A DNA stretch of 44,371 nt from a virus (taxonomy: Duplodnaviria; Heunggongvirae; Uroviricota; Caudoviricetes), in IMG/VR virus record IMGVR_UViG_2627854098_000001. One strand, written 5' to 3'. The translations under genes and the position numbers were made by a program. Shown here piece after piece: positions 338 through 4,826 of the stretch (its first letter is position 1; each line of letters begins with the position of its first letter). The notes beneath the pieces were generated by a model. The model was given only the letters and a program-made list of their open reading frames with translations. It was not told the origin of the DNA and did not search any database.

Positions 338-955
338 TTGATCAGTACGGAACCAATGTCATTAGTAGCACAAATAGGACAGTATTCGTGGTGTATCACA
401 GTAGTTAGCGTCTGCTTAGTTTTCATTGGATGGCGAGTTGCGTACAATAATTCTGTAAAACTGGCGACACGTTCTGAATCGAAATCAATTATTGATGCTA
501 TTTCAAAGTTAGTTATTGAAATTTCTGATATTTCTTCTAACTATTGGCTCAGTCAGACAACTCAACCTAAAATTAGAGCATCAAAGCATCGATTGTTAAG
601 GTTGCAAAAGGATAGAACAAAGGCTTCTGTTTCATACTTGTTAACTATCTTGGCTAAAGCTCAACAAGTTTCCAAACTGATTTGCATTTTGGAAAGCAGA
701 GGACTGTATATACCTGACGAGGTGTTCTCATCTGTACTAGAGAAAGCAACTCTGGATTGTGAGGTCGCTCACAAGCTTTCAGATGCCGATCGCCCGGTTA
801 AAGCACAAGAAGTAATTGATGCTTGTATGGGAGTTATCGAAGCGTTACATACTTCTTTTCAAAGGTACCACCCTCCCAAAAAGGATCGTACCTTTATGCA
901 AAGGTTAAAAATTTGGTTTCAAACAGTAGACGATTGGCATAATGACTTAAAATAA
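338..955 (+). CDS. hypothetical single-pass membrane protein, 205 aa
   Basis: TTG start 338 with AGAGG RBS at 327-331; one N-terminal hydrophobic helix (CITVVSVCLVFIGW); AT-rich; 3' end overlaps the int stop. Confidence 0.5.
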   Translation: MISTEPMSLVAQIGQYSWCITVVSVCLVFIGWRVAYNNSVKLATRSESKSIIDAISKLVIEISDISSNYWLSQTTQPKIRASKHRLLRLQKDRTKASVSYLLTILAKAQQVSKLICILESRGLYIPDEVFSSVLEKATLDCEVAHKLSDADRPVKAQEVIDACMGVIEALHTSFQRYHPPKKDRTFMQRLKIWFQTVDDWHNDLK

Positions 956-1264
956 AGCCTTTTTATCCTTGATACTTGCCCTCCCATCATACTCTTTCAA
1001 GTATTGTCCATAGTGCCTGAATAACATTTCAGGCCCTTTATGGCCCATTTGAGCCGCAAGCCAAAACAGGTTTGCTCCCCGGCTGATATGGCTGGTGGCG
1101 AATGTATGCCTGGTTTGATATGGGTTTCTGTAACGAATACCTGCTTTTCGCAATGTTGGCACCCATGCTTTTTTCCTAATTGCATCAGCACTTGCCCAGG
1201 GTTTATTGGTCTTTGGATCTTCAAAGACAGTAGCATCCTTCATGAATGTAAATGGCTTCTGGTT
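947..1264 (-). pseudogene. int: tyrosine integrase, C-terminal catalytic fragment (split from N-terminal part by IS66 insertion)
   Basis: Catalytic motifs RHTFATS (H-x-x-R) and HYGQY (Tyr); in frame with the N-terminal part once the IS and one TSD copy are removed. Confidence 0.85.
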
Positions 1265-1272
1265 TATCAACG
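1265..1272. repeat. 8-bp target-site duplication TATCAACG (left copy) of IS66 copy A
   Basis: Identical octamer at 3971-3978 directly abutting the other IS end. Confidence 0.85.
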
Positions 1273-1302
1273 GTAAGCGACTCGTCAGAACCGTATTGAT
1301 AT

Positions 1303-2873
1303 TTACTGAGAGCTCAGATCAACTTTCCAGGGCAACAGATCGCGTACCCGGTTTGCCGGCCAGTCCTGGATATGTTCAATGACGTAACGCAGCCACTTTT
1401 CTGGCTCCACATTGTTCAGACGGCATGTGCCGATCAGCGAGTACAACACCGCCGCATGTTCACCACCGCTGTCGGAACCCGCGAACATCCAGTTTTTCCG
1501 GCCTACGGCCACTCCCCGTAAGGCGTTCTCTGCGATGTTGTTGTCGATTTCCACCCAGCCATTACTGCAGTACACGTTCAGTGCATCCCACTGTTTCAGC
1601 AGGTATGCGAACGCTTTTGCCGTATCTGAGTGACGCGACAGTGTTTTCATCTGTTGCTGTATCCAGTCATACAGTGACTGCATCAGTGGCGCGGCTCTGG
1701 CTTTTCTTGCCGCCAGACGCTGTTCTGCTGAACAGCCCCGGACCTCTGCCTCGATGGCATACAGTTCACCGATACGCTGCAGGGCTTCCGTGGTGATGTA
1801 GGTGGGCGCTCTTGCATGCACATCGTGGATTTTTCTCCGGGCATGAGCCATACACGCGGCTTCCGTTATTCTGCCGGATTCGTATAACGCCCGGTAACCA
1901 CCGTAAGCATCGGCCTGAAGCACACCGCTGTAACCGGCCAGGTGATTTTGTGGATGGATACCTTTCCGGTCCGGACTGTACGCGAACCAGACCGCCGGGG
2001 GCATCTGTGAACCGGCGTTACGGTCATCACGGACGTAGACCCACAGCCGGGCTGTCCGGGTTTTACCGCTGCCCGGCTCCTGGACCGGGACGGGGATATC
2101 ATCAGCATGGACTTTACCGGGCATCAGCACATACTGGCGCAGGACGTCATACAGCGGCTCCAGCAGTTCAGCAACAGCACCTGTCCAGCGCCCCAGTGTG
2201 GCACGGCTCAGCTCCACTCCCTGACGACGGTATATTTCTGACTGGCGGTATAACGGCAGATGGTCTGCATATTTCCCGGTGACAACATGGGCCAGAAGCC
2301 CCGCTCCGGCATAACTGCGTGCAATGGGTTTTGAAGGTACTGGTGCCTGCACGATATGGTCGCACCGGCAACAGGCCTGTTTCGGACGTTGTGTTTCGAT
2401 AACCTTAAAGGCGCTGCTGATAAGCTCCAGTTGCTCTGACACATCACATCCCAGAGAACTGAGTTCACCACCACAGGCAGGACAGCATTCCTCTTCCGGC
2501 CGGATAACCCGGGTTTCACGGGGAAGTGAGGCCGGTAACGGTTTACGGGCTGAAGACTGGCGCAGGGCGGATGGCAGTACCGGGTCATATTGCTCACCCA
2601 GCGTTTCCGCCATTTCTTCTGAAGTGCGCTGATTCGCTCCTGTGCTTCCTGTATCTGCCGTTCGGTTTTTGCACGAAGTTTTTCTGAGCTTTTACCGAAC
2701 TGCATACGTTGCAGTTTCGCAACCAGCGCCTTCAGCCGGTTGATTTCGGAAGCATAAGCCGCCACCCGCTGTGAGAGCAGGCGGTTGTATTCAGCCATCT
2801 GGCGGATGGTGTCCTGTTGCGTCTGCAACAGTGCCCGCAGGCGGGCGTTCTCATGAGCAAGTGAGGTGTCCAT
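1303..2873 (-). pseudogene. tnpC: IS66 transposase TnpC, frameshifted (1-bp deletion near 2619 relative to copy B)
   Basis: Split into ORFs 2208-2873 and 1303-2613; copy B has the intact 523-aa ORF; copy A reads CTTCTGAAG where copy B reads CTTCCTGAAG. Confidence 0.85.
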
Positions 2874-2892
2874 ATCCTCACTTTACAACGGG

Positions 2893-3240
2893 TTATATGC
2901 GGATTCCAGCGCGTTCCGTTCGTTTCGGGTGCTTCCAGTTGATACCTTCAAGAAGCATGGATAACTGAGCCGGAGTAAGGTGCACCTTGCCGTCACGGGT
3001 GACTGGCCAGACGAAGCGGCCCCGCTCCAGGCGTTTGGTGAAGAGGCACAGTCCGTCACTGTCAGCCCACAACACTTTTATCTGGTCACCCCGGCGTCCG
3101 CAGAAGATGAACAGGTGTCCGGAGAACGGGTCATCCTTCAGGACGTTCTGAACTTTTGATGCCAGGCCGTTAAAGCCATTTCGCATATCGGTGATACCTG
3201 CAACCAGCCAGATACGCGAACCTGCAGGGAGAGATATCAT
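2893..3240 (-). CDS. tnpB: IS66 accessory protein TnpB (115 aa)
   Basis: Identical to copy B except one Cys/Arg substitution (FIFCGRR vs FIFRGRR); 1-nt ATGA overlap with tnpA. Confidence 0.85.
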   Translation of the reverse strand: MISLPAGSRIWLVAGITDMRNGFNGLASKVQNVLKDDPFSGHLFIFCGRRGDQIKVLWADSDGLCLFTKRLERGRFVWPVTRDGKVHLTPAQLSMLLEGINWKHPKRTERAGIRI

Positions 3241-3917
3241 CAGTGGCTGCTCCCTTTTATTTCGCGGATAAGTGTCTGTAATAACGCCGGCGTCAGTTTA
3301 CCTTTAAGCCTGAGAGTTCCGGCCGGCAGAACCAGCTCACAACACAGACTGTCGGACGGTGTATTTATCTGCTCTGGTTCCTGTGCGGGGGCCGGGATTT
3401 TATTATCCGGCTCCGGCGTTAACGTCACGGGAAGCAGTGCCGGCATATTTTTTCCGGAAGGCAGCAGGCCACCTTTCCGGTATTGATGGCGCCAGTTGAA
3501 GAGCAGGTTATCGTTGATTCCGTTTTCCCGGGCGATCTGCGCCACACAGGCTCCGGGCTGCAGTGACTGCTCCACTAAGGCGATTTTAAACTCATAAGGG
3601 AAGTTGGGCCGCCGGGGACGTTTTTTTACCACGGGGGCTTCGGATATAACGGTGCTTTCAGGACGTACGACTGGTACCGTGGAAAATTGTCCGTAAAGGC
3701 AGGCATCAAGTTCCTGCTCCGACATGCCTGCGGGCAAAGGCCACGAAAGGCCAGCTCTCCGAAAGCGCACGAACATACTACAAACTGTTGATTTTGGTAC
3801 ACCCAGGCGACGCCCGGCCACAACCCGGGGTAAATGTTCTTCAAAGTGAAGACGTAAAGCTTCAGTGATCCAGGTCCGGTGTTTCATACGATAGTGTCCA
3901 TTAAAAATGATGGACAT
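3240..3917 (-). CDS. tnpA: IS66 accessory protein TnpA (orf1), ORF as called 225 aa; true start may be internal
   Basis: Identical to copy B ORF; HTH-like N-terminal region; position within IS66 operon. Confidence 0.75.
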   Translation of the reverse strand: MSIIFNGHYRMKHRTWITEALRLHFEEHLPRVVAGRRLGVPKSTVCSMFVRFRRAGLSWPLPAGMSEQELDACLYGQFSTVPVVRPESTVISEAPVVKKRPRRPNFPYEFKIALVEQSLQPGACVAQIARENGINDNLLFNWRHQYRKGGLLPSGKNMPALLPVTLTPEPDNKIPAPAQEPEQINTPSDSLCCELVLPAGTLRLKGKLTPALLQTLIREIKGSSH

Positions 3918-3970
3918 TATTTTTGTAGAGCCGGAGGAAACAGACCAGACGGTTTAAATGAGCCGGTTAC

Positions 3971-3978
3971 TATCAACG
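3971..3978. repeat. 8-bp target-site duplication TATCAACG (right copy) of IS66 copy A
   Basis: Matches 1265-1272. Confidence 0.85.
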
Positions 3979-4826
3979 CCAACATTGCTTCTTCAGTCAG
4001 TTCAACTTTACGGGTACCGGCTTTTGTCTTTGTTCCTTTGATAACTCCGACAACACTTGCGCTCTGAACATGGGCTGTTTTTCCAACAAAGTCGATATCA
4101 TGCCATCGTAGGGCACATAATTCAGAACTACGCAGGCCTGTATGTATGGCGAACCGGAACAGATTTTCCCATTGTTTGTTTCCGGCTGCTGCTAGTAATG
4201 CATCAACTTCTGCTGGTGATAGCGGATCAACCACATAGCTGCTTTCTGCTTTCTGACTTATCACTTTGGTAGCGCGAAGCTGTTACTAACGATACGGGGT
4301 TAATTTGAAGTACCCCATCGGTCACGGCTTCATCAAGTGCTGACCGTAGGAAAGATAACTGGTTGCGAATGGTTTTTAAGGTTGTTTTCTGGCTTTGAAT
4401 CCACGCTTTCAGGGTTGCTGGTGTTAATTCACTTGCAGGGCAAATGTGAAGTGAGGCTAACGCACTACGGCATTTTTTATAGCCACCAATCGTAGAGGGT
4501 GAAAGTTTTCTTGTTTCGCAGATTTCAAGATATTCGTCCAGGTACATCTTTACCGTTTTGCTTGCAGCAGCATTACCAAAAATTTTCAAACGAGCAGAAC
4601 GGGGAAAATATTCTGCATAAATGAATGTTCCCCTTTCGATCTTATTATGGATTTCGCCGAGTGTACGCTCGGCGTATTTAATGTTCTTTGGTGTTACTTC
4701 CAGATTGGAAAGCGGCTCACGACATCTAACTCCTTTGTAGGTGAAAGTTATATTGATCGTTTCTCCCTGGTGGTGTTTCCTGATTGTTACGCCGCGCGGT
4801 AGTTTGAGCAGTTTTGTCTGGCCCAT
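3971..4826 (-). pseudogene. int: tyrosine integrase, N-terminal part, carrying a 7-bp tandem duplication frameshift
   Basis: Two overlapping frames (4227-4826 and 3971-4264); CTTTCTG repeated at 4242-4248 and 4249-4255; removing one copy gives a continuous ORF (...SDKSESSYVVDPLSPAEV...); HTGLRSSEL Arg motif present. Confidence 0.85.

Follow-up and report, generated by a model that had tools for sequence, protein, structure and literature searches.

The sequence analysed here (44,371 nucleotides, referred to below as the window) raises the question of whether the integrase gene (int) at one end of a prophage has been inactivated twice, and whether the prophage is fixed in its host chromosome as a result, as a sequence-only reading had proposed. 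The window is 100% identical, on the reverse strand, to the chromosome of E. coli APEC IMT5155 (NZ_CP005930.1), and it contains the end of a tailed prophage (~43 kb) at which int and xis lie; this prophage has e14/CPS-53-like genes and sits in the ssrA (tmRNA) island of that strain. IMT5155 is a poultry pathogen of the APEC ST140/ST95-complex lineage. We consider it likely that the locus carries one inherited insertion sequence (IS) lesion together with a single extra T, the latter probably an artefact.

The IS lesion was observed directly. An ISCro1-type element of the IS66 family, hereafter copy A, occupies positions 1273–3970 on the minus strand, with its transposase genes in the same orientation as int, and is 2,698 bp long, against 2,699 bp in the sister strains. 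It is flanked by two copies of the 8-bp sequence TATCAACG, the left at 1265–1272 and the right at 3971–3978. Its terminal inverted repeats, GTAAGCGACTCGTCAGAACCGT and GTAACCGGCTCATTTAAACCGT, are imperfect GTAA... ends that agree at 16 of their first 22 positions. The site is empty in many other genomes, DSM 30083 among them: window position 1272 joins 3979 and a single TATCAACG is present, which proves that the flanking copies are an 8-bp target-site duplication. After removal of the IS and one copy of TATCAACG, the int pieces on the two sides lie in the same frame, just as the sequence-only reading had described. Terminal inverted repeats, an 8-bp duplication and an empty site in relatives were thus all found, as is usual for the IS66 family.

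The gene content of copy A points the same way, since Pfam recovered the IS66 set of tnpA (HTH), tnpB (IS66 Orf2) and tnpC (DDE_Tnp_IS66) in series, all on the minus strand. The tnpA gene (3240–3917) encodes 225 aa with an HTH_Tnp_1 domain (PGAP WP_001339397.1), and tnpB (2893–3240) encodes a TnpB_IS66 protein of 115 aa, which is WP_000624599.1 in copy A here compared with WP_000624622.1 in copy B and in the sister strains. This tnpB holds the only substitution private to the IMT5155 assembly, at position 3102 (A here, G in the sisters). The DDE transposase gene tnpC (1303–2873) has lost its frame here because one C is absent at 2618/2619 (CC to C), a variant unique among 5,426 genomes. Copy B has an intact tnpC of 523 aa, as does copy A in strains DE17, VTB96815v and EC13; elsewhere, copy A tnpC is 100% identical to the intact copy B. 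The assignment to ISCro1 rests on the PGAP name of the transposase ("IS66-like element ISCro1 family"), and copy A resembles ISCro1 in its three-gene tnpA-tnpB-tnpC layout, its DDE_Tnp_IS66, zf-IS66 and LZ domains, its GTAA... terminal inverted repeats and its 8-bp target duplication. It differs in its frameshifted tnpC, in the IMT5155 assembly only, and one paper gives 2,824 bp for ISCro1 in ST131 (PMC8764528), as against 2,699 bp for the element here.

The gene interrupted by this element encodes a tyrosine recombinase. The N-terminal fragment (3971–4826, minus strand; codons 1–285) comprises the Arm DNA-binding and SAM-like core-binding domains together with the part of the catalytic domain, its first half, that holds Arg232 and the Lys hairpin, and is labelled by PGAP as [quoted passage not shown]. 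The C-terminal fragment (947–1272, minus strand), labelled "integrase, incomplete, missing N-terminus", runs from the last base of codon 283 to the stop after codon 390, one target-duplication copy included, and carries YQTR (334–337), His360 and the nucleophile region with Tyr370/373; it is 100% identical to the 3′ part of the WP_000531794.1 gene in DSM 30083. An intact excisionase (xis) homologue (4787–4993, minus strand; WP_001331174.1), which is almost identical to the protein annotated as Xis in Citrobacter phage phiNP, overlaps the int start. For the DUF4325/STAS-like gene adjoining int and for its neighbours, PADLOC returned no match, and a defence-system identity for these genes was dropped.

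Taking out the IS, a target copy and a single T leaves a sequence that encodes a protein identical to WP_000531794.1 (390 aa). In this restored protein, Pfam detected the lambda-type domain set of Arm-DNA-bind_2 (residues 10–77, E = 7.5e-24), the SAM-like core-binding domain Phage_int_SAM_5 (94–178, with a score exactly at the cut-off) and Phage_integrase (PF00589; 202–372, E = 2.3e-16). Alignment to Tn1549 Int (6EN0/6EMY) placed Arg232 and the Lys in KGTKTKAG before the insertion point; YQTR (in which Tyr replaces the first His), His360 and the catalytic Tyr follow it. The nucleophile would be Tyr 370 or 373, as the alignment is off by one there. The earlier statement that the IS falls between the Arg/Lys motifs and the later catalytic motifs agrees with this alignment. 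A single uninterrupted frame is absent from the window, owing to the 2.7-kb IS after codon 285 and a frameshift at codon 192, and int in the window is a pseudogene of the tyrosine recombinase family, not a functional member.

The sequence-only reading had itself allowed that the two frames might belong to different genes, and an assembly chimera at the IS could be imagined as well. Beyond having been raised, this explanation has nothing in its favour, and we give it practically no credence: both frames jointly give one 390-aa integrase, which is intact in hundreds of genomes and in phiNP, and the IS junction recurs in three assemblies of independent origin (China, South Africa and Spain). The homologue comparison that the earlier reading had asked for thus identified both frames as one integrase, represented by WP_000531794.1 and the phiNP protein.

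Concerning the frameshift, the reading frame of int switches from an ORF at 4826–4227 to one at 4264–3917, both on the minus strand, and a perfect tandem CTTTCTG CTTTCTG is present at 4242–4248 and 4249–4255, within a periodic run of 17 nt (4239–4255). The sequence-only reading took this tandem for a frame-shifting 7-bp duplication that formed a second, independent and real lesion, and deletion of one unit does restore a continuous ORF. The same comparison with homologues speaks against the duplication. The intact allele reads CTTTCTGCTTCTG (13 nt), an imperfect pair CTTTCTG-CTTCTG, in all 404 other complete genomes with int, in which the wild-type 45-mer at this site was found, and no intact relative with a single CTTTCTG unit, the 7-nt ancestor that a duplication needs, occurs among them. 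The ancestral allele and the window thus differ by 1 nt, in a TTT run (4250–4252) that is TT in every other genome; window position 4250 corresponds to about position 841,803 of NZ_CP005930.1. Deletion of 7 bp leaves the frame open, but the product has 388 aa and lacks the Ala-Glu found in WP_000531794.1 and phiNP Int, whereas deletion of one T gives a product 100% identical to WP_000531794.1; the ancestral allele encodes SEAESS, which the phiNP integrase (91% identical) retains. Moreover, perfect 7-bp tandem pairs occur at two loci in the window, against 2.7 expected by chance. Because 404 genomes read CTTTCTGCTTCTG and phiNP encodes the same residues, the lesion reads in sequence as one extra T (TT to TTT), a +1 frameshift at codon 192, and the 7-bp duplication is ruled out for all practical purposes. 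Until the ancestral allele has been seen, a frameshift that coincides with a perfect short tandem repeat is no evidence of duplication.

The distribution of the two changes among genomes differs. The 48-mer at the IS/int junction is exact in four complete genomes (IMT5155, DE17, VTB96815v and EC13), and the uninterrupted int (WP_000531794.1, 390 aa) with a single TATCAACG is present in DSM 30083, UTI89, APEC O1, S88 and others, about 400 genomes in all. The +T 46-mer was found in IMT5155 only, among 5,426 complete genomes. The closest counterpart is the int of the ssrA-island prophage in UTI89, APEC O1, S88, IHE3034 and DSM 30083 (ST95-complex and other E. coli), with which the locus shares an identical protein after removal of the IS, target copy and T, a chromosomal location between glaH and ssrA, and xis and yfdP-R as neighbours; in those strains int is intact, whereas in IMT5155 it is split by the IS and, in this assembly, frameshifted. 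Across positions 1–6600, with the IS removed, the only differences from DSM 30083 are three 1-nt T insertions. The Int of Citrobacter phage phiNP (OR565852.1) is 91% identical in amino acids over 387 residues and shares the overlapping xis-int arrangement, SEAESS at the frameshift site and the catalytic motifs, but phiNP, whose record was deposited as that of a complete phage, has an intact int, comes from another host and differs in the rest of its genome.

Whether the extra T is real has to be weighed against the way the genome was obtained: all IMT5155 reads came from 454 GS Junior/FLX Titanium, at ~23x, and were assembled with Newbler, the gaps being closed by PCR filling. Comparison over 49 kb with DE17 and with VTB96815v gave exactly the same differing sites in IMT5155 each time, six single-base indels and one substitution, and the two sister strains agree with each other wherever IMT5155 differs. 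Besides the T at 4250, these indels fall at window positions 2618, 5615, 13240, 18963 and 36264. The real divergence from DSM 30083, by comparison, amounts to 10 substitutions and one indel (Fisher's exact test against the private ratio, p = 0.0025). Each private indel leaves one gene as a "frameshifted" pseudogene, whereas the sister strains have that gene intact, and five of the seven "frameshifted" genes in the 50-kb stretch are private to the IMT5155 assembly. Of the three IS-bearing sisters, the two that keep this part of int both lack the extra T. As the T is private to a 454-only assembly and absent from sisters sharing the IS, the claim that int was inactivated twice is doubtful: its IS half stands, with the same junction in three other genomes, and its second half is probably an artefact. 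We regard the extra T as a probable base-calling or gap-finishing error.

A genuine mutation private to IMT5155, arising later than the IS insertion, when the gene was already dead, and possibly by slipped misalignment between the imperfect units, is the less likely explanation, though one to be taken seriously. 454 consensus errors concentrate in runs of six or more, and the T run here has only 2–3 bases, atypical for such errors, while four of the other private indels sit in runs of six or more. The gene would have been neutral, since the IS is common to the sister strains, and the changed unit is a perfect copy of its neighbour, as a templated misalignment may be expected to produce. A homopolymer frameshift at 5550 is common to three assemblies, so the lineage does have genuine frameshifts of this type. 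Against a real mutation stand the uniqueness of the T and the company it keeps: in 49 kb of this 454-only assembly, a further five 1-nt indels are private, as against a single substitution. In addition, the private differences outside long homopolymers (2618, 3102 and 4250) lie within 1.6 kb, in or adjoining IS copy A, with no further one in the remaining ~45 kb, and copy A, being a repeat, is plausibly a PCR-filled gap. Against an artefact, on the other hand, ISCro1 copy B and the third IS show zero discrepancies from the sisters; a repeat-finishing error is therefore not something that IS regions of this assembly show in general. That another ISCro1 copy donated the clustered differences by gene conversion was considered and rejected, as the tnpC variant is unique and the T is not within the IS. 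An exact look-up of the 199-aa frameshift product gave no record, which is uninformative given that the IMT5155 pseudogene itself is also without one. If the mutation were genuine, int would be truly doubly inactivated, and precise loss of the IS could not revive it. More improbable still is a fuller version, in which a templated "repeat-perfecting" misalignment of CTTTCTG and CTTCTG added a second, irreversible lock to the ISCro1-split int, so that a poultry-associated lineage would keep a structurally complete, immobilised prophage, shed (as in EC13) only via IS-end-anchored deletion.

Returning to the account that we favour, an ISCro1-type IS66-family element inserted once in the 390-aa tyrosine integrase gene, after codon 285, duplicating 8 bp and parting the Arm, core-binding and Arg/Lys half from the half with YxxR, His and the tyrosine nucleophile. 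This lesion is inherited, being common to DE17, VTB96815v and EC13. The extra T, which turns the native imperfect repeat CTTTCTG-CTTCTG into a perfect one, would most likely be a 454 error, or else a recent mutation private to IMT5155. We infer that no active integrase could be made from the split gene, and the prophage should consequently be unable to excise by its own site-specific recombination. To this extent the claim that it is fixed in the chromosome is valid, namely for Int-mediated self-excision only; taken overall it is too strong, because in strain EC13 a deletion anchored at the end of the IS has removed the prophage in its entirety.

The biological significance of the locus is small. 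IS-disrupted prophage integrases are commonplace, the O157:H7 Sakai Sp/SpLE prophages being IS-riddled examples among defective prophages, and prophage decay in such cases proceeds from a first IS hit in a mobility gene to later IS insertions and IS-anchored deletions. The IMT5155 locus is a further instance of the IS-disrupted integrases of E. coli cryptic prophages, with nothing mechanistically different, and PGAP in RefSeq already flags the int pieces as pseudogenes, so that the disrupted int is ordinary and already annotated. Frameshifts in 454-only assemblies such as that of IMT5155 should not be taken as biology. For the prophage itself, self-excision would be prevented by the IS whatever the status of the T, and IS-mediated deletion would still be able to remove it.

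The window is the reverse strand of NZ_CP005930.1, the chromosome of E. coli APEC IMT5155, with window position 1 at record position 846,052. In the prophage tyrosine integrase gene (int), a 2,698-bp IS66-family insertion sequence (1273-3970, hereafter copy A) lies between two copies of an 8-bp target duplication, TATCAACG, at 1265-1272 and 3971-3978, and the int frames are continuous after removal of the element and one TATCAACG copy, as the sequence-only reading had described. PGAP labels the element 'IS66-like element ISCro1 family'. Its terminal inverted repeats begin with GTAA, and 16 of their first 22 positions agree. 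Pfam identified tnpA (HTH_Tnp_1) and tnpB (TnpB_IS66), and the tnpC domains LZ, zf-IS66, DDE_Tnp_IS66 and IS66_C were read from the intact second ISCro1 copy (copy B) in the same window.

The restored int product is a 390-aa tyrosine integrase with Pfam Arm DNA-binding (10-77), SAM-like core-binding (94-178) and catalytic (202-372) domains. Alignment to Tn1549 Int confirmed that the element separates the catalytic motifs as claimed, with Arg232 and the Lys hairpin KGTKTKAG (~263-270) on the N-terminal side, and YQTR (334-337), His360 and the tyrosine nucleophile (370 or 373) on the C-terminal side. The duplicated bases begin with the second base of codon 283 and finish with the last of codon 285; therefore, Ile285 is the final residue of the N-terminal piece, and the C-terminal piece restarts at Asn286 (LALI/NQKP). 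An intact xis (4787-4993) overlaps the int start. In Citrobacter phage phiNP, the annotated Xis is nearly identical to that of the window, and the integrase is 91% identical to the int product, with the same SEAESS at the frameshift site.

The empty site was found in DSM 30083, where the segments corresponding to window 1-1272 (1,218,414-1,219,685) and 3979-5100 (1,219,686-1,220,806) are contiguous with a single TATCAACG, and also in UTI89, APEC O1, S88, IHE3034 and many others. A 48-mer across the int/IS junction matched exactly in four complete genomes, namely IMT5155, DE17 (duck, China), VTB96815v (chicken, South Africa) and EC13 (human gut, Spain). Since four genomes carry the same junction, an assembly chimera is ruled out; the insertion is real and inherited, and is older than the split of these strains.

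The first lesion had been attributed to a 7-bp tandem duplication. The tandem CTTTCTG CTTTCTG is present at 4242-4255, and the int frame changes there from an ORF at 4826..4227 to one at 4264..3917, both on the minus strand; the observation was accurate, but its mechanistic interpretation was wrong. When window 1-6600, with the IS removed, was aligned to DSM 30083, no substitutions were found, and the sole differences were single-T insertions at 4250, 5550 and 5615. The intact allele reads GCTGCTTTCTGCTTCTGAC; therefore, the native sequence is an imperfect 7+6 repeat, which one extra T (TT to TTT, 4250-4252, codon 192) makes resemble a perfect duplication. Removal of the IS, one target copy and one T gave a product identical to WP_000531794.1, whereas removal of 7 bp instead gave 388 aa without Ala-Glu. 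The duplication was rejected on these grounds, the ancestral allele being only 1 nt shorter. Perfect 7-bp tandems occur in the window at chance frequency (2 observed vs 2.7 expected). The wild-type 45-mer was found in 404 complete genomes, and the +T 46-mer in IMT5155 only.

The IMT5155 genome was sequenced by 454 GS Junior/FLX Titanium only, at ~23x, and assembled with Newbler and PCR gap filling, without polishing with another chemistry (PMC4232414). Over 49 kb compared, DE17 and VTB96815v were identical at all sites where IMT5155 departs from either. The differences private to IMT5155 comprised an inverted orientation of the tail-fibre segment, one substitution (3102) and six single-base indels: a missing C at 2618 (copy A tnpC), an extra T at 4250 (int), 5615 and 36264, an extra A at 13240, and a missing T at 18963. 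Four of the six indels lie within runs of 6-7 bases in the IMT5155 assembly, and the indels yield PGAP 'frameshifted' pseudogenes whose counterparts in the sister strains are intact. The genes so called from the five indels outside int were ISCro1 tnpC, a hypothetical gene, a LexA-family regulator and YmfQ; one 441-nt ORF is also shortened by the private differences. Genuine divergence from DSM 30083 consisted of 10 substitutions and one indel, a +T at 5550, which is real because it is common to DE17 and VTB96815v and thus to all three IS-bearing strains retaining the prophage. The private ratio of 6 indels to 1 substitution differs from the genuine 1:10 (Fisher p = 0.0025). The five other indels and the 3102 substitution are likely 454 or finishing errors.

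For the extra T in int, a real mutation private to IMT5155, which might have come from misalignment between the imperfect repeat units, would agree with the T and the tnpC C both lying in 2-nt runs, against simple homopolymer error, and with the error-free state of copy B and the third IS, a different IS66-family element near the right end. However, the private differences that do not fall in long homopolymers, three in number, all lie within 1.6 kb, in or beside copy A, and repeats such as IS copies typically need PCR gap filling. A real mutation is rather unlikely, and the extra T, on which the claim of double inactivation depended, is probably an assembly artefact.

The early genes of the prophage are e14/CPS-53-like, its head is of the HK97 type, and its tail, with tail-sheath, tail-tube and baseplate genes, is contractile. 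It lies in an island limited on one side by ssrA and on the other by a repeated copy of the 3' end of ssrA adjoining glaH. An imperfect direct repeat of ~180 bp bounds the island (1169-1343 and 44287-44467 in the comparison locus L004), containing the last 20-27 nt of ssrA and the sequence downstream. The true ssrA lies at the opposite end from int, perhaps because elements at the site are tandem or composite. In EC13, a P4-like satellite adjoins ssrA. Three plus-strand cargo genes (window 1-955 and L004:1499-2410) separate int from the distal ssrA-3' repeat and encode a 303-aa hypothetical protein, a 108-aa DUF4325/STAS-like protein and a 199-205-aa hypothetical protein; none had a PADLOC match, and Pfam matched DUF4325 only.

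Three IS66-family insertions occur in the region. Copy B (38786-41484), inverted relative to copy A and with an intact 523-aa TnpC, is flanked by a 9-bp direct repeat, ATGAAAATG (38777-38785 and 41485-41493), vs 8 bp at copy A, and lies 9 bp outside the invertible tail-fibre segment (36838-38776; 20-bp inverted repeats at 36838-36857 and 38757-38776). The orientation of this segment in IMT5155 is opposite to that in DE17, VTB96815v and DSM 30083. In all four strains, no more than 123 nt of the adjacent DNA-invertase gene survive (41546-41668), so that the inversion must depend on another invertase of the genome acting in trans. The third IS (41967 to beyond 44371; tnpA 133 aa, tnpB 115 aa, tnpC 512 aa) differs from the ISCro1 copies and interrupts a gene for a 629-aa DUF262/GmrSD type IV restriction protein (remnant at 41770-41970), which is intact in DSM 30083 and gave a full-length PADLOC match to mREase_IV. 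Therefore, a prophage-borne defence gene is likewise knocked out in the IS-bearing lineage. In VTB96815v, the third IS is followed on its right by rclABC and aldo/keto-reductase genes in place of the GmrSD remainder (L006, the VTB96815v locus, 46654-49501), which indicates an IS-associated chromosomal rearrangement.

The int locus represents ordinary prophage decay that was annotated already. Whether the T is real or not, the IS by itself would be expected to block the synthesis of active integrase, so that site-specific self-excision would be lost. To this extent, the claim that the prophage is fixed in the chromosome holds, but it is too strong: EC13 lost its prophage. There, window 3970, the int-proximal end of copy A, is joined directly to 42176 in the third-IS tnpA (6219/6220 in L007, the EC13 locus). 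The C-terminal int piece and copy A remain, whereas the N-terminal int piece, all of the prophage, copy B and the beginning of the third IS were lost in this 38.2-kb deletion. One of its boundaries coincides precisely with the IS end, as is characteristic of an adjacent deletion anchored there. DE17 and VTB96815v have no int lesion other than the IS, and its precise loss could in principle restore int in these two strains.
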